A stretch of 64,000 nucleotides of DNA from an uncultured Gammaproteobacteria bacterium (GTDB lineage Bacteria; Patescibacteriota; Microgenomatia; UBA8517). The notes beneath the pieces were generated by a model. It was not told the DNA's origin. It searched no databases and was given only the letters and a program-made list of their open reading frames with translations. Below are positions 4,973 through 27,646 of this stretch, piece after piece. Made by a program: the position numbers and the translations under genes. The stretch spans positions 24,814-88,813 of the forward strand of contig CAZSGY010000006.1 in the NCBI GenBank assembly GCA_964606975.1, in the 5' to 3' direction. Positions within the stretch are counted from its first letter, which is position 1; the number at the start of each line of letters is the position of its first letter.

Positions 4973-7141
4973 ATGGCAGAAGTAGCAAAGAAAAAGGCGG
5001 CAATAGTTATGACTGCGACTGAAGATCGCAATGTTTCCTATGAAAAAATTAGAAACATCGGGATTATTGCGCACATCGATGCCGGAAAAACCACCACAAC
5101 AGAAAGACTCCTCTTTGAAACAGGAAGAACTTACAAATTGGGGAATGTGGATGAGGGAACCACTGTAACCGACTGGATGGCCCAGGAAAGAGAGCGCGGC
5201 ATTACTATCGTTTCGGCAGCTATTACCGCTTTTTGGGATATCAAAGACAGTACTTCCGTTGAGGCCGGACATTACAGAATTAATATCATTGATACTCCCG
5301 GCCACATCGATTTTACCGCTGAAGTTGAACGTTCCCTCAGAGTTTTAGACGGCGCTCTTATGGTTTTTGATGGTAGAACCGGAGTTGAAAGCCAATCCGA
5401 AACCGTTTGGAGACAAGCAGACAAATACAATGTTCCCAGGATTTGCGTTCTTAACAAATTAAATTTAATTGGAGCCGATTTTGAGTCTTCGATTAAGTCA
5501 ATTAGGGAAAGACTCAGGGCCAATGCTTCACCGGTTATTGTTCCTATCGGTTTGGAACATGAACACAGGGGTGTAGTTGATCTTGTAAAAATGAAAGCAT
5601 TTACCTATAAAGACGTAACTGACCACGCCTTGACTGAGGAAGAAATCCCGGCAGATATTCTCGAAACAGCCAAAAAATATAGAGCCGAGCTCATTGAAAA
5701 AGTTTCAGAGTTTGATGATGAAGCTTTAAATATGTATCTCGAGGGCAAAGAGCCCGATGAGGTAATTCTTAAAAGAGCAATCAGAAAAGGTGTCATAACA
5801 GGCAAATTCTTCCCGGTGTTCGGTGGAGATAATCGTACGGCAGAAAGTCAGCTTTTGCTGAATGGAGTTGTCGAGTATTTACCTTCCCCAATTGATCTGC
5901 CTCCCGTTCGCGGAACAAATCCCAAAACCGGCGGCGAAGAAGTCAGGGAAAGAAAAAATGAAGCTCCGATGAGTGCCTTGGCTTTTAAAGTCATGACAGA
6001 CCCCCACGTCGGACGTTTGGTTTACATGAGAGTTTATTCCGGGTCTATCAAGGCCGGTCAGGAAGTTTACAACGCTTCAAAACAGAAAAATGAAAGGATT
6101 GGTAAATTAGTTCTTCTTCACGCGGACCAAAGAGAACTTATAGAAGAAGCTTTTGCAGGAGAGATTGTCGCTGTTGTTGGAGTTAAAGAGACTTCAACCG
6201 GTGACACCATTTGCGACCCTGCTCATCCAGCGATTCTTGAATCCATTTCATTTCCGGAACCGGTTATCTCTTTGGCAATCGAACCTGCAACAAAAAGCGA
6301 TCAGGAAAAAATGGGTATTGCTCTAAATAAGCTTTCCGATGAAGATCCGACATTTAGAATTAAAAGCAACGCAGAAACCGGACAAACAATTATTAGCGGA
6401 ATGGGAGAGCTCCAGCTTGAAGTTTTGGTCGACCGTATGAAGAGAGAGTTTAACGTTATTGCCAATACCGGTGCGCCTCAAGTCGCTTACAAAGAAACAG
6501 TTAAAAAGATTGGTGAAGGGGAGGGTAAATACATCAGACAAACAGGAGGTCGTGGACAATACGGTCACTGTCTACTGCGTCTTGAGCCTTTGGGTAGAGG
6601 TGAGGGATTCGAGTTCAAAAGCGAAATCAAAGGTGGGGCAATTCCCCAAGAATATGTCCCGGCCATTGAAAAGGGTATCAAGGAGAAAATGGAAAATGGC
6701 GTCATGGCAGGCTTTCCGATGGTCGATATGCGGGCGGTTGTTTACGACGGAAGCTACCACGAAGTTGATTCTTCAGAAATGGCCTTTAAAATTGCCGGTT
6801 CAATGGCACTTGAAGACGCGTTCAAGCATTCCGAGCCCATACTTCTTGAGCCTATTATGAAAGTCGAAGTCTTTACTCCGGGTGAATATATGGGAGACGT
6901 AATTGGTGACCTTTCCAGCAAACGTGCCCAAGTTTCCGGAAGTGAAGAGAAAGCAGGCGAGACCGTTATTTATGCACAAGCTCCGCTTTCCGAGCTTTCA
7001 GGATATGCAACCAAACTTAGATCTCTTACCCAAGGGAGAGCAAGAGCTTATGTAGAACCGTCACACTATGACGAAGTTCCATCCCACATTGCAGCCCAGA
7101 TAGTTGCGAAGAGCGGTAAGGTTGAAATGCCCAGAGGCTAA
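4973..7141 (+). CDS. fusA: Elongation factor G
   Basis: 722 aa; AHIDAGKTT G1 motif, DTPGHIDF, EF-G domains IV/V. Confidence 0.97.
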   Translation: MAEVAKKKAAIVMTATEDRNVSYEKIRNIGIIAHIDAGKTTTTERLLFETGRTYKLGNVDEGTTVTDWMAQERERGITIVSAAITAFWDIKDSTSVEAGHYRINIIDTPGHIDFTAEVERSLRVLDGALMVFDGRTGVESQSETVWRQADKYNVPRICVLNKLNLIGADFESSIKSIRERLRANASPVIVPIGLEHEHRGVVDLVKMKAFTYKDVTDHALTEEEIPADILETAKKYRAELIEKVSEFDDEALNMYLEGKEPDEVILKRAIRKGVITGKFFPVFGGDNRTAESQLLLNGVVEYLPSPIDLPPVRGTNPKTGGEEVRERKNEAPMSALAFKVMTDPHVGRLVYMRVYSGSIKAGQEVYNASKQKNERIGKLVLLHADQRELIEEAFAGEIVAVVGVKETSTGDTICDPAHPAILESISFPEPVISLAIEPATKSDQEKMGIALNKLSDEDPTFRIKSNAETGQTIISGMGELQLEVLVDRMKREFNVIANTGAPQVAYKETVKKIGEGEGKYIRQTGGRGQYGHCLLRLEPLGRGEGFEFKSEIKGGAIPQEYVPAIEKGIKEKMENGVMAGFPMVDMRAVVYDGSYHEVDSSEMAFKIAGSMALEDAFKHSEPILLEPIMKVEVFTPGEYMGDVIGDLSSKRAQVSGSEEKAGETVIYAQAPLSELSGYATKLRSLTQGRARAYVEPSHYDEVPSHIAAQIVAKSGKVEMPRG

Positions 7142-7149
7142 AAATACTA

Positions 7150-7179
7150 TTGACAGGCACGATTAGCCTCAGCTATAAT
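7150..7179 (+). promoter_or_regulatory. Near-consensus sigma70-type promoter upstream of tuf (TTGACA-18nt-TATAAT)
   Basis: TTGACA at 7150-7155, TATAAT at 7174-7179. Confidence 0.6.
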
Positions 7180-7204: not shown

Positions 7205-7233
7205 CTTGTAAGTTAAAAAAGTCGGTAATATAA
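7205..7233 (+). promoter_or_regulatory. Second candidate tuf promoter (TTGTAA-17nt-TATAAT), would give a ~3-nt leader
   Basis: TTGTAA 7205-7210, TATAAT 7228-7233, ATG at 7243. Confidence 0.4.
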
Positions 7234-7242
7234 TATATACCT

Positions 7243-8436
7243 ATGGCAGGTGAAGCAAAACAAAAATTTGAGAGAGCAAAACCACACGTAAATGTTGGAA
7301 CAATTGGTCATGTTGACCATGGTAAAACAACTTTAACTTCAGCCATCACTATGGTTTTGGCCAAAAAAGGCCTTGCACAAGCCAAGAAATACGAAGATAT
7401 TGACAGTGCTCCGGAAGAAAGAGAAAGAGGAGTTACAATCAATCTTTCCCACCAAGAATACGAAACAACTAAGAGGCACTATGCCCATATTGATGCCCCG
7501 GGTCATGCTGATTACATCAAAAACATGATCACCGGTGCAGCTCAAATGGATGGAGCAATTTTGGTTGTTTCAGCAGCCGACGGTCCAATGCCCCAGACCC
7601 GCGAGCATGTTATTTTAGCCAAACAGGTTAATGTTCCTGCAATTGTAGTTTTCCTTAACAAATGCGACATGGTTTCCGACCCCGAACTTATTGATTTGGT
7701 CGAGGCAGATGTAAGAGAACTTCTTAAAAAATACGGTTACCCGGGAGATGAAGTTCCGGTAATTAGAGGAAGCGCTTTGAAAGCTATTGAAGGCGACGCA
7801 GAAGCCGAGAAAAAGATTGAAGAATTAATGGAAGCTGTCGATACCTATATTCCTGATCCTGTCCGCGAAATCGACAAACCTTTCTTAATGGCTGTTGAAG
7901 ATGTATTTACAATTCAAGGACGCGGAACTGTTGTTACAGGTAGGGTTGACAGAGGTATTATCAAAGTCAACGAAGAAATTGAGATAGTCGGACTTAAAGA
8001 GACTCAGAAATCGGTTGTTACAGGTCTTGAGATGTTTAGGAAGACCCTTGACGAAGCTCAAGCAGGCGACAATGTCGGAGTATTGCTTCGCGGAATTGAG
8101 AAAAGCCAGGTTGAGCGCGGTCAGGTTTTAGCCAAGTCGGGTTCATTGACACCTCACACAGATTTTGAAGCTGAAGTTTATATCTTGAGCAAGGAAGAAG
8201 GCGGACGTCATACACCATTCTTTAGCGGTTACAAACCCCAGTTTTACATTAAGACTGCAGACATTACAGGAGAAGCCACACTTCCGGAAGGAATCGAGAT
8301 GGTCATGCCCGGAGACAATGCCAAGATGACCGTTAAACTTATTCAGCCTGTGGCCATGGAAGAAGGATTCAGATTTGCAATCAGAGAAGGTGGACACACC
8401 GTAGGTGACGGAGTCATAACCAAGATCCTTAAATAA
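7243..8436 (+). CDS. tuf: Elongation factor Tu
   Basis: 397 aa; [22 protein letters not shown] motifs. Confidence 0.98.
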
Positions 8437-8471
8437 TTGCGCCAAGGCGGCGGAAGCACATTAACCTTAAG

Positions 8472-8780
8472 ATGGCAAGCTCAAGACTTAGAGTAAAACT
8501 CAAAAGTTACGATCATAGAGTAGTAGATGAGGCGGCAGCAAAAATAGTCGATACCGCTCTAGCTACTGGTGCAAAAATTGTAGGACCAATTCCACTCCCT
8601 ACAAAAAGAAGCATGATGGCCGTCAAGGAATCTCCATTTACAGACAAAGACGCGCAGGAACATTATGAAGTTCTGGTGCATAAAAGACTTATCGATATTA
8701 TTGATCCCAGTGCGCGCACAGTTGATTCCCTTGGGAATTTAGATCTTCCGGCGGGCGTAAGTATCGAGATCAAGATGTAA
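8472..8780 (+). CDS. rpsJ: 30S ribosomal protein S10 (uS10)
   Basis: RIRLKSYDHRVVDEAAAKIV... S10 signature. Confidence 0.95.
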   Translation: MASSRLRVKLKSYDHRVVDEAAAKIVDTALATGAKIVGPIPLPTKRSMMAVKESPFTDKDAQEHYEVLVHKRLIDIIDPSARTVDSLGNLDLPAGVSIEIKM

Positions 8781-8794
8781 GCCTCTTGGCTTAA

Positions 8795-9667
8795 TTATTT
8801 AAATTTAATTCCTTTCAAGTTCACCTTACAAGATAAAGGACTATCCACCACGATTGAGGCTCTCCAAAAATAGTTAAAGATTTTAATTGGTAAAATAGGC
8901 TCAAAATATTTTAAATACGGCCTTAATTTTTTAGCCAATCCCCAAACAAATTTTGGTACCTCAATTTTTTTATATTTCTTGTTTTTGGAGATATAAATTT
9001 TTTCAAATATTTCCGCCAACGTGAGGTTTTCTGCGGCAAAGGAAATCACCTGCGGACTCATCTGCGAAGACTTAAGTATAAATTTTACTGCGTCATCAAC
9101 ATAGATCAAAGCTACTTTCCCGGGCCAATCTAGCCTCGCAAAAAGGGACTTTTTGTCTACAAGCTTTCTCAGAAAATTTAAAAAACTATTTTTTCTCGGA
9201 TTTTCTCCCCAAACAGTCGGAAGTCTTATGATTGTCAATTTAAAGCCCTTCTTTTTAGATTCTGTAATAAGTATTTTTTCGGCTTCAAGTTTTGTTTTGC
9301 CGTATTTGTTGTTAGTGTACGGCTCGGTATTATTATCTATCGGCTTTTGGGTATCTCTTCTACCGGAAAAAATTGCCTGAGAGCTGGTAAAAATAAAATG
9401 TGTGTCCGGTCCCAATCGGGGGAGAGCTTTTAATAAATTCCTTGTTCCGATATCGTTGCATTTTTGATTGCGCTTTGAAGTGTCAGTGGCGGCCGCAAGA
9501 TGAAAAATAAGCCTTGAGTTCTTTGGTATTTTCTCAAGCCCCTTGCCGGTTGCTAAATCGTGCTTTTTTGCATCCAGAATAAACACCTTTTCACCGGGAT
9601 GTTTTTGCTTGATTAAGGGTAAAAGTTTTTTGCCGATGAATCCCGACGCGCCTGTTATAAGTATCAT
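8795..9667 (-). CDS. NAD-dependent epimerase/dehydratase family protein (extended SDR, nucleotide-sugar modifying)
   Basis: N-terminal ILITGASGFIGKKL Rossmann GxxGxxG; convergent with rpsJ; lies inside the S10 operon. Confidence 0.8.
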   Translation of the reverse strand: MILITGASGFIGKKLLPLIKQKHPGEKVFILDAKKHDLATGKGLEKIPKNSRLIFHLAAATDTSKRNQKCNDIGTRNLLKALPRLGPDTHFIFTSSQAIFSGRRDTQKPIDNNTEPYTNNKYGKTKLEAEKILITESKKKGFKLTIIRLPTVWGENPRKNSFLNFLRKLVDKKSLFARLDWPGKVALIYVDDAVKFILKSSQMSPQVISFAAENLTLAEIFEKIYISKNKKYKKIEVPKFVWGLAKKLRPYLKYFEPILPIKIFNYFWRASIVVDSPLSCKVNLKGIKFK

Positions 9668-9691
9668 GTTTTAGCAGTATAATACTTCCGC

Positions 9692-10681
9692 ATGCCGGCT
9701 AAAATAATTAAACATAAGTGGTTTTTAGTCTGTCTTGTTTTGGCCGTTTTTCTGGCATTTTTTAGAAATACACAAGGCACATGGCAGCAGGACAATTATG
9801 TAGGATATGCAGAGCACCTACCTTCAGACATAGGTCAAATATCCTTTTTTGATTCGAGGTTGCTTCCCGGTCTCCCGATTTTAATTTACATTTTGCATTA
9901 TTTGGCGGGAGATTTTTATGTTGCAGGTTATTTAATTACATTTTTGTCGTTTATCGGTTCTTACCTACTTTTATATAAATTAACCAAATCAAATTTGAGT
10001 TTTTTGCCACTGGTGTTTCCTCCTATACTTTTAAATCTTGCTTCGCTAATAGACACGGAATATCCGTTCATTTTTTTATTGATTCTTGGCTACTCTTTAA
10101 TAAAAGGCAGGCGTTATAATTTGGCCTTTCTGGTAATCGGCATTTCAGTTTGGTTTAGGCTCGCGGGAGTAGCTGTTATGGCTGGAGTTTTTGTTTATAT
10201 GCTATTAAAAAAGGAATTCCGCAAGGTTTTTGCAGGCTTGTCGTATTTTTTAATGCCAGTACTTTTACTTTCTTTATACAATATCCATTTTTTTGGATAT
10301 GAAAATCCTTTTTATCAGCTTTTCGCCTATCAAGCGCTGCATCCCGAAAGAATAAGTTTTGGGGCAATACAGCTGGTGCAGGATTTGATCAGGGCCATAA
10401 GGTGGGGTTGGTACAAGATTTTTATCTCAGGATTTTTTTACGTGATTTTCTATGTTCTAATGTACATTAAAACATTTAAAACAAAAGGCCTCGAATTTTG
10501 GATTATTACCGGTCTCTACCTTTTTACCTTGAGCGTAAATCTGGTTCCTTTTTTGGAAAACTTGGGAAGGTATCTTGCCCCTGCGGTGCCATTTTTCTGG
10601 CTTGTACACTACAACAAACTACAAAGGAGTGCGCTCGCAGTAGCAGCCATTATTGCCTCGTTTTTAGTGGTTATTGTCTGA
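9692..10681 (+). CDS. Polytopic integral membrane protein (~9-10 TM), possible GT-C-type glycosyltransferase / polysaccharide polymerase
   Basis: Highly hydrophobic 329 aa with multiple predicted TM helices; divergent from epimerase across a 24-bp spacer containing TATAAT (9680-9685). Confidence 0.5.
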   Translation: MPAKIIKHKWFLVCLVLAVFLAFFRNTQGTWQQDNYVGYAEHLPSDIGQISFFDSRLLPGLPILIYILHYLAGDFYVAGYLITFLSFIGSYLLLYKLTKSNLSFLPLVFPPILLNLASLIDTEYPFIFLLILGYSLIKGRRYNLAFLVIGISVWFRLAGVAVMAGVFVYMLLKKEFRKVFAGLSYFLMPVLLLSLYNIHFFGYENPFYQLFAYQALHPERISFGAIQLVQDLIRAIRWGWYKIFISGFFYVIFYVLMYIKTFKTKGLEFWIITGLYLFTLSVNLVPFLENLGRYLAPAVPFFWLVHYNKLQRSALAVAAIIASFLVVIV

Positions 10682-10723
10682 AATCCACTTGATACTCAAC
10701 TTGCATAAATATTATATTTAGCT

Positions 10724-10957
10724 ATGAGTAAAGAGTTGTCCCTGGACGTGGCTGGCATTATCGAAAAGCACCTCTCTTGGGACAAATACTTAGGATGTGA
10801 TAGCCAGGTGGCTATGAAGGCATTTGAGTTATACCAGGAACGGCTGGCCGAAGGTAGAGACGGTACTCCGGATGAGGACTGGCAGAAGGCGGAAGATTTG
10901 GTTAGGGAAGAATTTGCTATGGAATTTTTGGAAAAAACCGCCCCACGGCTTGCGTAG
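10724..10957 (+). CDS. Small acidic hypothetical protein (77 aa)
   Basis: Complete ORF after the membrane protein, followed by promoter/hairpin; no recognised domain. Confidence 0.45.
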   Translation: MSKELSLDVAGIIEKHLSWDKYLGCDSQVAMKAFELYQERLAEGRDGTPDEDWQKAEDLVREEFAMEFLEKTAPRLA

Positions 10958-10978
10958 GCATATCACTTCTGATATAAT
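10950..10978 (+). promoter_or_regulatory. Candidate promoter (TTGCGT-17nt-TATAAT) restarting the S10 operon upstream of rplC
   Basis: TTGCGT 10950-10955, TATAAT 10973-10978. Confidence 0.45.
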
Positions 10979-11051
10979 TGCCGTCATAACAATATGGTGG
11001 TTATGATCAAAGTCAGCCACAAAGACAGTCTTCGCTAGGTAGCTTCAGGAA

Positions 11052-11078
11052 AGCGCCTCGAGAAGGCGCCTTTTGTTT
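11052..11078 (+). terminator. Intrinsic terminator / attenuator-like hairpin in the rplC leader (GCGCCT-cgaga-AGGCGC followed by CTTTTGTTT)
   Basis: 6-bp GC stem 11053-11058/11064-11069, T-run 11071-11078; 46 nt upstream of the rplC start. Confidence 0.6.
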
Positions 11079-11124
11079 AATGCCTGTTCGACTCGTGAGA
11101 GCCGGATCTGGGTTCACAACAAGC

Positions 11125-11904
11125 ATGATTAATACTATTTTAGGTTCGAAAGGTGTAAATAGTCAGACCTTTGTACAAGGGTTTAGGATTCCCGTTACCA
11201 AAGTAATGGCGGGACCTTGTGTCGTGACTCAAATTAAAAAAGTCGAAAAAGACGGTTACTACGCAGTCCAACTAGGTTTTTCCTCAAAGAAATCAAAAAA
11301 CACCTCAAAATCACTCCAGGGACATTTAAAAGAAACAGCAAAGGAACAAAAATTTCCAAAAGTTTTAAGAGAAATCAGGTTGGATAAAGAGCCGGAATTT
11401 AAAGTTGGCGATGTTATCAAAGTATCCGAGGTTTTGAAGCGCGGAGATATTATCGCTGTAACCGGAATTTCTAAAGGAAAAGGATTTGCCGGTGTTGTTA
11501 AAAAGCACCATTTTAAGGGAGGACCCAGGACACACGGACAGAGCGATCGTGAAAGGGCTCCGGGATCAATCGGGCAAACAACCACTCCGGGTAGAGTTTA
11601 CAAAGGCAAAAAAATGGCCGGAAGAATGGGGACAGAACAAGTAACTATTAAAAATTTGCACATTATTTCGGTAAATGAAGAAACCGGTGAGATCGAAATT
11701 TCCGGACAAGTTCCCGGAATAACAGGCGCGATTTTAACAATCAGGAAGATTAAATCCGGAAGCTTAAAAGATTTGGAGAAGGAAACAGTAGCTCAAGTGG
11801 TTGAGGGTGAAGCCCCTGCAGAAGGTCAGGCTGTAGCTGAAGAAAAGGCCGGGGAACCGGCAAAACCGGAAGAAGCTAAACCTGAACAACAGGCACAAGC
11901 ATAA
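11125..11904 (+). CDS. rplC: 50S ribosomal protein L3 (uL3) with Ala/Pro/Glu-rich C-terminal tail
   Basis: MINTILGSKGVNSQTF...PCVVTQIK..DGYYAVQLGF; ORF-track start 11080 trimmed to ATG 11125. Confidence 0.92.
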   Translation: MINTILGSKGVNSQTFVQGFRIPVTKVMAGPCVVTQIKKVEKDGYYAVQLGFSSKKSKNTSKSLQGHLKETAKEQKFPKVLREIRLDKEPEFKVGDVIKVSEVLKRGDIIAVTGISKGKGFAGVVKKHHFKGGPRTHGQSDRERAPGSIGQTTTPGRVYKGKKMAGRMGTEQVTIKNLHIISVNEETGEIEISGQVPGITGAILTIRKIKSGSLKDLEKETVAQVVEGEAPAEGQAVAEEKAGEPAKPEEAKPEQQAQA

Positions 11905-26493: not shown

Positions 26494-27594
26494 ATGGAAA
26501 CAGAAAATAATTCTGAAGTTGGCGAACTCTATCCAATTTCTTTGGAAGAAACGTGCGTAATTGGCAGTATTCTCTATAAGGATTATCAAACTGATGGGAC
26601 AGAAGGTAATATTAGGGGACATAGAGCAATAGATTCTCTGGTCAAAGCTGTTGATAAAGGTTGCAAAGCCTCAATTATTATTAGTCAGGAAACTGATAAA
26701 AAGTTTATCTCTGATTTAAAAGGAAAATTATCAAACCTGGGCGATAAAAGTGAAAATGTTGTTTGGCACATGCAAAGCAAAACCGGTTACAGTGAAGCTA
26801 GACGTGAGGCAATAGAGTTGGCAAAGGCGAAATATCCAGAAACACGCGCCTTTATTATGCAAGAGATAGAAAAGGATTTAACTTCAAATTACGATAGTTT
26901 TGTAAACAAGCTATCCGATAACAAGATCTTAGTAATGATGAACAGAGGGGTGAATATTCCATACAATGAAAATCCCTGGCAGGATACTAAACATTTAGGG
27001 GCAAATTTGCCCAGAGAACAATTTTGGGGAGAAAGACACCAAAATATTGAAATGGCAAACCAAGAAAGTGCTGCCGGATTAACAAAAGAACCTCATTTTT
27101 GGGACAGGTTAAATGGTACACGGATAATTAGAAACGAACGGGTTAAAATTGGAGACGTTGAAATAAATCCGACTGACTTAATGCTTCTAAAATATAAATA
27201 TTCAGATGGTTATTCGGAAGAGGATAGAAAAAATAAAATCGATACATATTCAGCCAGTGTTTATAATTTAGTCCCAATATTGGAATCCCTAGGCGGTGAG
27301 GATAAAATAGCCGAAGTTCCTGTAGAATATATTCACTCTGAAGGCCAAAGGCAATTGGAGGAGGGAAACTCGGAGTTTAAAGAAAAAAGATTGGGACATA
27401 AAGTCGATTTGCCAGCAATTAATTTTGATATTGTTGCAAATATAAAAGAATGGAAAAAAGAAGGAAGGTGGCCGCAGGTTTTATTGGATGCGCTGAAGAC
27501 TGACAAAACTTTGGAAATAAAACATTTTGATAAGAATGAATATAGTTTAACAGGAGTTAATAATCCGACTTTTGGTCGGGGTGCTGAGAATTGA
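26494..27594 (+). CDS. Hypothetical soluble protein (366 aa), no recognisable domain; low GC; 3' end overlaps antisense tRNA-Pro
   Basis: Complete ORF wedged between rpsI and tRNA-Pro; no TM/signal peptide; last 22 nt including the stop lie inside the tRNA on the opposite strand. Confidence 0.6.
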   Translation: METENNSEVGELYPISLEETCVIGSILYKDYQTDGTEGNIRGHRAIDSLVKAVDKGCKASIIISQETDKKFISDLKGKLSNLGDKSENVVWHMQSKTGYSEARREAIELAKAKYPETRAFIMQEIEKDLTSNYDSFVNKLSDNKILVMMNRGVNIPYNENPWQDTKHLGANLPREQFWGERHQNIEMANQESAAGLTKEPHFWDRLNGTRIIRNERVKIGDVEINPTDLMLLKYKYSDGYSEEDRKNKIDTYSASVYNLVPILESLGGEDKIAEVPVEYIHSEGQRQLEEGNSEFKEKRLGHKVDLPAINFDIVANIKEWKKEGRWPQVLLDALKTDKTLEIKHFDKNEYSLTGVNNPTFGRGAEN

Positions 27595-27646
27595 ACTCAG
27601 TTCAGACGCACCCCATGCGCCTATTCTACCGGTGAACTACACCCCG
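27573..27646 (-). tRNA. tRNA-Pro (anticodon GGG), 74 nt with encoded CCA
   Basis: Manual fold: acceptor CGGGGTG/CACCCCG, D-stem GTTC/GAAT, anticodon stem GGCGC/GCGTC, loop A-T-GGG-G-T (G37), T-arm CTGAG-TTCAATT-CTCAG, discriminator A, CCA. Confidence 0.85.

Follow-up and report, generated by a model that had tools for sequence, protein, structure and literature searches.

In archaea, as in cyanobacteria and plastids, the gene for ribosomal protein S10 follows the EF-Tu/EF-1alpha gene in a str-type unit, and the next operon starts with the gene for L3. Known pairs of a sugar enzyme with a GT-C enzyme are ArnA/ArnT, and DprE2 with the Emb/Aft arabinosyltransferases. Insertions into the translation super-cluster usually invade inter-operon regions, and accessory genes lodged in the gap between two units leave the gene order of each unit intact and can persist, with further rearrangement following (PMC8046335). 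The leader of the Escherichia coli S10 operon exerts L4-mediated, NusA-dependent transcription attenuation together with translational control (PMC3616713). Here we analyse a stretch of 64,000 nucleotides (nt) from an assembly of the Woesebacteria type (Microgenomates, candidate phyla radiation (CPR); contig CAZSGY010000006.1, positions 24,814–88,813 of the forward strand; hereafter the window), in which rpsJ (S10) and rplC (L3) are separated by three genes encoding a short-chain dehydrogenase/reductase (SDR), a membrane glycosyltransferase of the GT-C type and a small acidic protein.

We consider it probable that the rpsJ–rplC junction is a boundary between transcription units in this lineage and acts as a hot spot that holds an ancient, vertically inherited SDR/GT-C pair. 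Literature searches turned up no report that rpsJ and rplC are separated in the CPR.

A probable operon boundary between rpsJ and rplC

The list of open reading frames (ORFs) and Pfam agree on the split, as had been read from the sequence alone: fusA, tuf and rpsJ (8472–8780, plus strand; Pfam Ribosomal_S10, E 6.6e-30) are followed by an extended SDR of 290 amino acids (aa) on the minus strand (8795–9667), a 329-aa membrane protein without a soluble domain (9692–10681, plus strand), a 77-aa acidic protein (10724–10957, plus strand) and then rplC (11125–11904, plus strand) and rplD through rpsQ. For rplC, the longest ORF begins at 11080; because the start that is conserved in all relatives (MINTILGSKG) corresponds to the ATG at 11125, the gap is 8781–11124, as in the sequence-only reading. 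The SDR gene is convergent with rpsJ, its stop codon lying 14 nt beyond that of rpsJ, and divergent from the GT-C gene, the two starts being 24 nt apart. As a baseline, rplC is found 12–256 nt after rpsJ in those metagenome loci with an S10 at most 62% identical in which both genes were found.

The rplC operon has a sigma-70-type promoter of its own (10950–10978, plus strand), predicted from a −35 box TTGCGT (10950–10955), a 17-nt spacer ending in TG and a −10 box TATAAT (10973–10978). The pattern TTGCGx-17-TGnTATAAT is present upstream of rplC in all 20 loci tabulated, with any cargo or none, and its TATAAT is invariant. In three relatives (L017–L019; loci are labelled in this way throughout) the gap is 132–195 nt long, no gene was found in it, and the rplC promoter and the leader that follows it are present; in the cargo-free L019 the −35 region extends into the end of rpsJ, and in the window the −35 box overlaps the small ORF's stop codon. 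Because promoter and leader are kept in cargo-free loci too, we infer that the rplC promoter predates the insertion and that rpsJ already stood outside the rplC unit, so the sequence-only reading, by which the insertion had forced a new start for rplC, is not supported.

On the other side of the junction, rpsJ would ride with tuf (7243–8436, plus strand; ORF list and Pfam). The spacer between them is 35 nt, the promoter scan listed no plus-strand promoter-like site within it, and tuf is directly followed by rpsJ in every CPR relative examined. An E. coli-type S10 (L4) leader was not recognized upstream of rpsJ, where this spacer gave no Rfam match at E<=10. We suggest that tuf and rpsJ (7243–8780) form one transcription unit. 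Ahead of tuf, a promoter-like site matches the consensus in 12 of 12 positions (TTGACA-18-TATAAT, 7150–7179, plus strand; promoter scan), and a second such site (7206–7234, plus strand) has its TATAAT 9 nt before the tuf ATG. Further upstream, fusA occupies 4973–7141. A small hairpin, TAAGCC-TCTT-GGCTTA (8778–8793; terminator scan), between the convergent stops of rpsJ and the SDR gene is a weak candidate for a terminator. The rpsJ cistron is also flanked by an 18-nt inverted repeat, 89% complementary, at 8429–8446 and 8785–8802 (TTAAATAATTGCGCCAAG / CTTGGCTTAATTATTTAA); this could be chance or long-range RNA pairing, and its conservation in L001 is not obvious by eye.

A probable hot spot with an ancient gene pair

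Loci with the SDR/GT-C pair at the rpsJ–rplC junction are L001–L003, L006–L011 and L095–L097, which represent at least 10 other assemblies and include, among L006–L011, Candidatus Woesebacteria GW2011_GWA1_44_23, GWA1_41_7 and DeMMO6_57. For relatives with the pair at the junction, GT-C identity is 50–69%. In a rough neighbour-joining tree of EF-Tu and EF-G, built without bootstrap, the pair-bearing loci form one clade and the outgroups are without the pair; L015 and L016, which carry other cargo, are nested inside this clade. Given that the same pair occupies the same site in at least 10 assemblies, that its GC content at third codon positions (GC3) is native and that repeats, an integrase and an adjacent transfer RNA (tRNA) are missing, we regard the arrangement as ancient.

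What accompanies or replaces the pair varies. A GT87 gene stands beside it at the junction in L001, L008, L011, L096 and L097, a His-phosphatase gene in L009 and L010, and a gene for a 23S-IVP-like protein is found at the junction in L007. Elsewhere the gap holds the small protein only (L015), GT87 only (L016), a His-phosphatase and the small protein (L100), DUF5343, SDR and GT87 (L101), one 99-aa ORF (L102), one 99-aa ORF and a His-phosphatase (L020), PIN/AbrB and HicB-like ORFs named from sequence (L027) or a replication-relaxation protein (L029). As relatives carry other cargo or none, the junction is best described as a hot spot; and as the gap probably separates two operons, an insertion there would not interrupt co-transcription. 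The pair is also found away from the junction: in GCA_040961635 it adjoins CTP synthase (L004), and the rpsJ–rplC junction of the same genome (L099) holds three unrelated unknown genes, and in L098 a 38%-identical GT-C homologue and an SDR are part of a glycan cluster with FdtA/hexapeptide, DegT, GT2, GT-C AftD and GT4 genes. The one-off disruption of an operon by a three-gene module that the sequence-only reading described is not borne out on either count, as the same pair recurs at the same junction across the Woesebacteria clade with other cargo in relatives, and as the SDR and GT-C genes travel as a pair, also at other genomic places, and the small gene occurs at the junction without them (L015, L100).

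Several further observations concern this region. Several lineages, some with the pair and some without it, encode a His-phosphatase-type protein of about 180 aa immediately after rpsJ and in the same orientation (L009:8565–9110, L010:8540–9085, L020:2703–3278 and L100:6072–6614, the last matching PF00300 His_Phos_1). At L001:5030–5053, and likewise in L011, a degenerate mini-rpsJ (MSRIRIELKRRMVSLTGAGVSIEIKM, followed by a stop) is located about 108–128 nt after the stop of the real rpsJ; it resembles the N and C terminus of S10 without the part in between, matches the 3′ end of the window rpsJ at 20 of its final 21 nt, and looks like a recombination scar at the junction. In L033 (8306–12000; S10 59% identical), rplC was not found within 8 kb downstream of rpsJ and the two genes appear fully separated; rpsJ is followed there by small ORFs that by eye resemble sigma-70-family proteins and by membrane proteins. 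Other junctions of the str cluster are interrupted too in Woesebacteria relatives: a NUDIX gene and a 225-aa ORF (L095:1974–3333) or two minus-strand ORFs (L099:1655–2411) lie between fusA and tuf, and a 173-aa ORF (L102:1897–2418) lies between rpsG and fusA.

Three of the contigs, CAZWNZ010000001.1 (L007), CAZAXL010000002.1 (L010) and CAYREZ010000004.1 (L012), are titled 'uncultured Gammaproteobacteria'. For L007 and L010 this label looks wrong, because they match the Woesebacteria-type window in gene order and their EF-G and EF-Tu are 86–96% identical to its own; all that L012 has in common with the window is the GT-C/SDR pair, at 39–42% identity.

A predicted structured leader upstream of rplC

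Between the rplC promoter and the ATG (10979–11124, plus strand) lies a predicted structured leader of about 100 nt that ends in a terminator, followed by a 46-nt spacer without a Shine–Dalgarno motif. It contains a hairpin P1, GUGGU...GCCAC (10997–11020), whose GUGG/CCAC base is invariant and whose tip varies; an intrinsic terminator (GCGCC-loop-GGCGC, 11053–11069, with a U-run at 11071–11078) that scored highest in the terminator scan; and a competing long stem (11028–11039 with 11056–11067), in which GUCUUCG.AGG pairs with the terminator loop and 3′ arm. The leader is more conserved than the adjacent small gene. In the leaders of 15 Woesebacteria, 87.8% of cells were paired, compared with 35–52% when the partners were slid, and changes on both sides occurred in four pairs of the long stem and in five pairs over the whole structure (columns 59/91, for example, are CG in nine leaders and UA in five). 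The terminator stem has changed on both sides in outgroups, as GGUGCC/GGCACC and GACGCC/GGCGUC. RNAalifold recovered only the terminator on the mixed alignment, having missed P1 because MAFFT misaligned it in outgroups, and the pairs of P1 and the long stem were defined by hand and then counted. Folded as a single sequence, the leader did not exceed shuffles in stability (z −1.07).

A covariance model of the leader has a single match in the 64-kb window, upstream of rplC (85.9 bits), matches the corresponding place in L102 at 38.7 bits and found nothing in the searched loci with a distantly related S10. Rfam gave nothing relevant on 8300–11400 at E<=10 or on the whole window at gathering thresholds. 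Taken together, the generic features of an attenuator-type ribosomal-protein leader (that is, a promoter, a conserved structured 5′ untranslated region, a terminator and moderate covariation) are present, and we regard the leader as a candidate attenuator, in which the long stem and the terminator would be mutually exclusive folds downstream of P1 with its invariant GUGG/CCAC base.

Predicted promoters of the cargo genes

Each cargo gene appears to use a promoter-like site of its own and would give a leaderless mRNA. The divergent spacer between the SDR and GT-C genes (9668–9691) has a near-palindromic −10 box (GTATAATAC), with TATAAT at 9678–9683; this box precedes the GT-C ATG by 8 nt and, on the opposite strand, is 10 nt away from the SDR ATG. 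The 10 relatives shown, L004 included, all keep a box of the TATAAT type (TATAAT(A/C), or ATAATA in L006), and wherever the GT-C start is unambiguous the box lies 8–11 nt from it, which suggests that the 24-nt spacer is the core of a bidirectional promoter from which (near-)leaderless mRNAs may be made. The small ORF is preceded by TTGATA-18-TATATT (10689–10718, plus strand; promoter scan), and as its −10 box ends 5 nt before the ATG, this mRNA may be leaderless as well. For the first genes tuf, GT-C and the small ORF, the −10 box ends 5–10 nt before the ATG. No Shine–Dalgarno-like motif precedes any of the 12 genes checked in the window, the ribosomal-protein genes from rplC to rplP included. 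The pattern is suggestive of widespread leaderless or Shine–Dalgarno-independent initiation in this organism.

The proteins encoded at the junction

About ten or eleven hydrophobic helices are found in the 329-aa membrane protein, which is itself without any Pfam match, GT87, PMT_2, PIG-V and EpsG included. An AlphaFold model made from 29 homologues (predicted local distance difference test (pLDDT) 91.6; predicted template modelling score (pTM) 0.91) has a multi-pass membrane fold that is superposable on solved GT-C enzymes, and all 25 of the best 25 Foldseek matches in the PDB are GT-C glycosyltransferases; this supports the GT-C fold, one of the possibilities read from the sequence, and a distant homologue lies in the classical glycan gene cluster of L098. 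In searches with sequence profiles, 28 of the 29 family members match NF046093 ('cell surface glycopolymer formation protein'; NCBIfam) weakly, some match EpsG (see below) and the window protein matches nothing in Pfam. An Asp in a QQDNYxxY motif (Asp34) is invariant in the 29 sequences and directly follows the first transmembrane helix (residues 9–28). The N-terminus is rich in Lys and positively charged and is thus expected to lie inside, a topology on which Asp34 would be at the topological position of the GT-C catalytic acid.

The family is small, with 59 clusters at E<=1e-30 among 1.84 billion representatives in an exhaustive profile search, the remote tail of which passes the Pfam cut-offs of PIG-V and PMT_2; against PDB sequences, its profile had no match even at E<=10. 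Its closest named relative is a protein of Microgenomates bacterium GW2011_GWC1_41_20. Because hhalign gave a probability of only 22% for the family against the neighbouring GT87 of L001, the two are not close paralogues. We conclude that the 329-aa protein is an unclassified minimal GT-C enzyme and that a Wzy/EpsG-type activity is less likely. Some family members are fused to other regions, such as P0226 (494 aa) to a C-terminal S-adenosylmethionine-dependent methyltransferase domain and P0241 (721 aa) to a region with weak, below-cut-off matches to GDSL acyl-hydrolases, which hints at coupled methylation or acylation of a glycan.

The minus-strand gene matches PF01370 (E 3.8e-24; 85.9 bits against a gathering cut-off of 20.9) and encodes the motifs GxxGxxG (GASGFIG, residue 6) and YxxxK (YGKTK, residue 122). 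By these marks its family is certain, namely that of the extended SDRs (NAD-dependent sugar epimerases/reductases), and the sequence-only reading was right on this gene, including its strand and its end 14 nt past rpsJ. NCBIfam equivalog cut-offs were not reached, the best being WbcJ (55 bits against 500) and RmlD (44 against 224), and the best solved relatives in the PDB are RmlD and GDP-6-deoxy-mannose reductase, at about 1e-8. Given an SDR next to a GT-C enzyme, the co-occurrence of GT87, the distant homologue in a polysaccharide cluster and the fusions to methyltransferase and acyl-hydrolase regions, we suggest that the pair modifies a glycoconjugate of the envelope, with a sugar transferred outside the membrane from a lipid-phosphate donor.

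The third gene product is acidic, as had been read from its sequence, with an isoelectric point of 4.5 and 18 Asp and Glu against 10 Lys and Arg. It has a DUF2934-like motif (A..A[YF]..Y..R...G..G....DW..AE), the Pfam match being weak and below the cut-off (E 0.003), and its invariant residues are S27, A33, R40, W53, A56, E57 and V60. A word-indexed search for homologues gave only two near-identical matches, and the others were found by tblastn in the fetched loci: beside the pair in L001, L010, L011 and L097 (in a different position in L097), and at the junction without the pair in L015 and L100. The small DUF2934-like gene is thus independent of the glycan pair. Its GC3 is 0.55, far above that of all neighbouring genes (0.34–0.39).

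Discussion

The scenario that we favour can be envisioned as follows. With rpsJ carried by the tuf unit and rplC through rpsQ running from their own conserved promoter under a structured leader that may act as an attenuator, the gap between the two operons would take in DNA, and cargo that differs between lineages would accumulate in it. In the clade of the window, a head-to-head SDR/GT-C pair would have been acquired anciently and then inherited vertically, with some members adding a second GT-C enzyme (GT87) and, separately, the small DUF2934-like protein; the simplest history is a single ancient insertion, after which genes were lost in some lineages and more were gained. The SDR may make or remodel a sugar, a polyprenyl-phosphate-linked donor form of which would feed the GT-C enzyme for transfer, on the outer face of the membrane, to an acceptor in the envelope (protein, lipid or glycopolymer). 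A bolder version, which we put forward tentatively and hold to be possible at best, is that rplC through rpsQ are under an undescribed Microgenomates attenuator of about 100 nt that senses L4 or L3, has an origin separate from that of the enterobacterial S10 leader and lies one gene further downstream, with the boundary serving as a lineage-wide integration hot spot at which glycan and accessory genes are exchanged between conserved arms formed by rpsJ and rplC.

A number of points weigh against these proposals. Covariation in the leader is modest, shuffle controls having reached it in 2–42 of 500 trials depending on the measure, and the 15 leaders are related sequences from which the structure itself was derived. 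Of the outgroup leaders, the model built on Woesebacteria detects L018 and L020 weakly (E about 0.01) and misses L017, L019 and L026 at a cut-off of E<=1. The terminator could merely insulate rplC from upstream read-through and have no regulatory role, and the promoter, the leaderless starts and attenuation have each been predicted from sequence. In addition, glycan genes could have stayed at exactly this site for so long because the location is selected for and not because it is permissive, and 11 of the 29 members of the GT-C family match EpsG (PF14897) weakly, the best at E 3.1e-6.

The history of the locus could be read in other ways. Had a recently acquired, mobile glycan island broken an intact rpsJ–rplC operon, uncoupled S10 and forced a new rplC promoter, the adjacency of the two genes in the loci with a more distant S10, the epimerase on the opposite strand, the presence of the pair at other places in some genomes and the degenerate rpsJ of L001 and L011, which shows past recombination at the junction, would all be accounted for. 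The low GC content on which the sequence-only reading relied is real (0.369 in the insert against a window mean of 0.407, standard deviation 0.024), yet it is not a foreign signature: GC3 is 0.381 and 0.373 in the SDR and GT-C genes and 0.335–0.39 in the flanking ribosomal-protein genes, and because the dip sits in codon positions 1 and 2, it reflects amino-acid composition. Direct or inverted repeats flanking the insert were found only at chance level, there is no integrase among the three inserted genes, and the single tRNA that ARAGORN found in the window (tRNA-Pro (GGG), 27573–27646, minus strand) is 16 kb from the insert; with no integrase, convincing repeats or nearby tRNA and with native GC3, a mobile genomic island was rejected. 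(The Rfam scan of the whole window at gathering thresholds reported no family, tRNA included, and neither paralogues of the cargo nor other glycan genes were seen elsewhere in the window among the query proteins tried or ten further ORFs scanned with Pfam.) As the pair also holds the same site in more than ten assemblies of one clade with GT-C identity down to 50%, and as the rplC promoter and leader are present in the gene-free L017–L019 and in relatives with unrelated cargo, a recent island is largely refuted and we give it very little weight. Still less credible, to the point of being negligible, is a chimeric assembly in which the insert was mis-joined to the ribosomal cluster: it draws only on the general risk that attends metagenome-assembled genomes, whereas the same arrangement recurs in independent NCBI, JGI and ENA assemblies on contigs of 155 kb to 757 kb. 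A third possibility is that the location is itself functional, with glycan genes placed between the two most strongly expressed units so that expression or supercoiling is tied to growth rate and the insert is selected and not a passenger. Retention of the pair at the exact site across a deep clade, the tight spacers (14 nt to rpsJ and 24 nt inside the pair) and the recurrence of glycan-type genes without the 329-aa protein (GT87 in L016, SDR and GT87 in L101) would fit this; however, each gene has its own promoter-like site, the SDR gene runs antisense to the flow, L004 and L098 show that the pair can do without this site, the nested L015 and L016 have lost it, and genes of toxin–antitoxin and mobile-element type occupy the site in other lineages, which makes selection for the location unlikely in our view.

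As for the membrane protein, it might be a polymerase or ligase of the Wzy/EpsG type in place of a GT-C transferase that depends on polyprenyl-phosphate sugars. Besides the weak EpsG matches of some family members, this would agree with P0074, which has a precomputed EpsG match and is encoded in a large polysaccharide cluster where a polymerase is expected. The window protein itself, however, has no EpsG match, the remote relatives of the family pass the thresholds of PIG-V and PMT_2, and the acidic residue of the first outer loop is invariant; we therefore consider a polymerase or ligase improbable and retain the GT-C transferase as the preferred reading.

Accepting an operon boundary with a hot spot corrects a tempting reading, as what seemed a 'broken' universal operon turns out to be a boundary that has moved and can take up insertions. 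In the CPR, even the most conserved of bacterial gene clusters varies in its gene order, which affects synteny-based annotation and binning checks that assume adjacency of rpsJ and rplC. Three by-products follow: a candidate ribosomal-protein leader/attenuator that is new and has no Rfam entry; a compact GT-C subfamily, so far unclassified, that has an SDR as its conserved partner and likely shapes the poorly known CPR cell surface; and a hot spot between highly conserved genes that could serve CPR genetics as a neutral insertion site. The parts most worth following up are the candidate rplC attenuator leader, the most novel of the by-products, and the unclassified minimal GT-C family.

Comparison with known systems

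Accessory genes at an operon boundary of the ribosomal super-cluster are of a known kind, and the locus is not a categorically new system. It resembles the insertions described previously (PMC8046335) in that accessory genes occupy a gap between units of the translation super-cluster; those were in Gammaproteobacteria and Bacilli and had entered ahead of rpsJ, at the str–S10 boundary, whereas the site here is between rpsJ and rplC, one gene on, and is used across a CPR clade with recurring glycan cargo. With the archaeal and cyanobacterial/plastid order it shares the tight linkage of rpsJ to tuf and an rplC that would head a separate unit, but here the organism is a CPR bacterium, variable cargo fills the split, and a predicted promoter of the bacterial type and a terminator-containing leader stand before rplC. 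The E. coli S10 leader is likewise a structured 5′ leader with a terminator hairpin before an L4-encoding operon; the leader of the window differs in standing upstream of rplC and not of rpsJ, in having no sequence or Rfam similarity to it and in being restricted, in the sample searched, to Microgenomates-type loci. For the cargo, the closest known systems include the GT-C enzymes that use polyprenyl-phosphate sugars (ArnT, PMT, ALG3/9/12, PIG-M/PIG-V, PimE/GT87 and Aft/Emb). Like ArnA/ArnT and DprE2 with Emb/Aft, the pair would join an enzyme of the dehydrogenase/epimerase type that prepares a sugar to a GT-C enzyme that, outside the membrane, passes this sugar on from its lipid-phosphate carrier, although without detectable orthology to either, the SDR being nearest to 4-ketoreductases such as RmlD (about 1e-8 to 1e-11).

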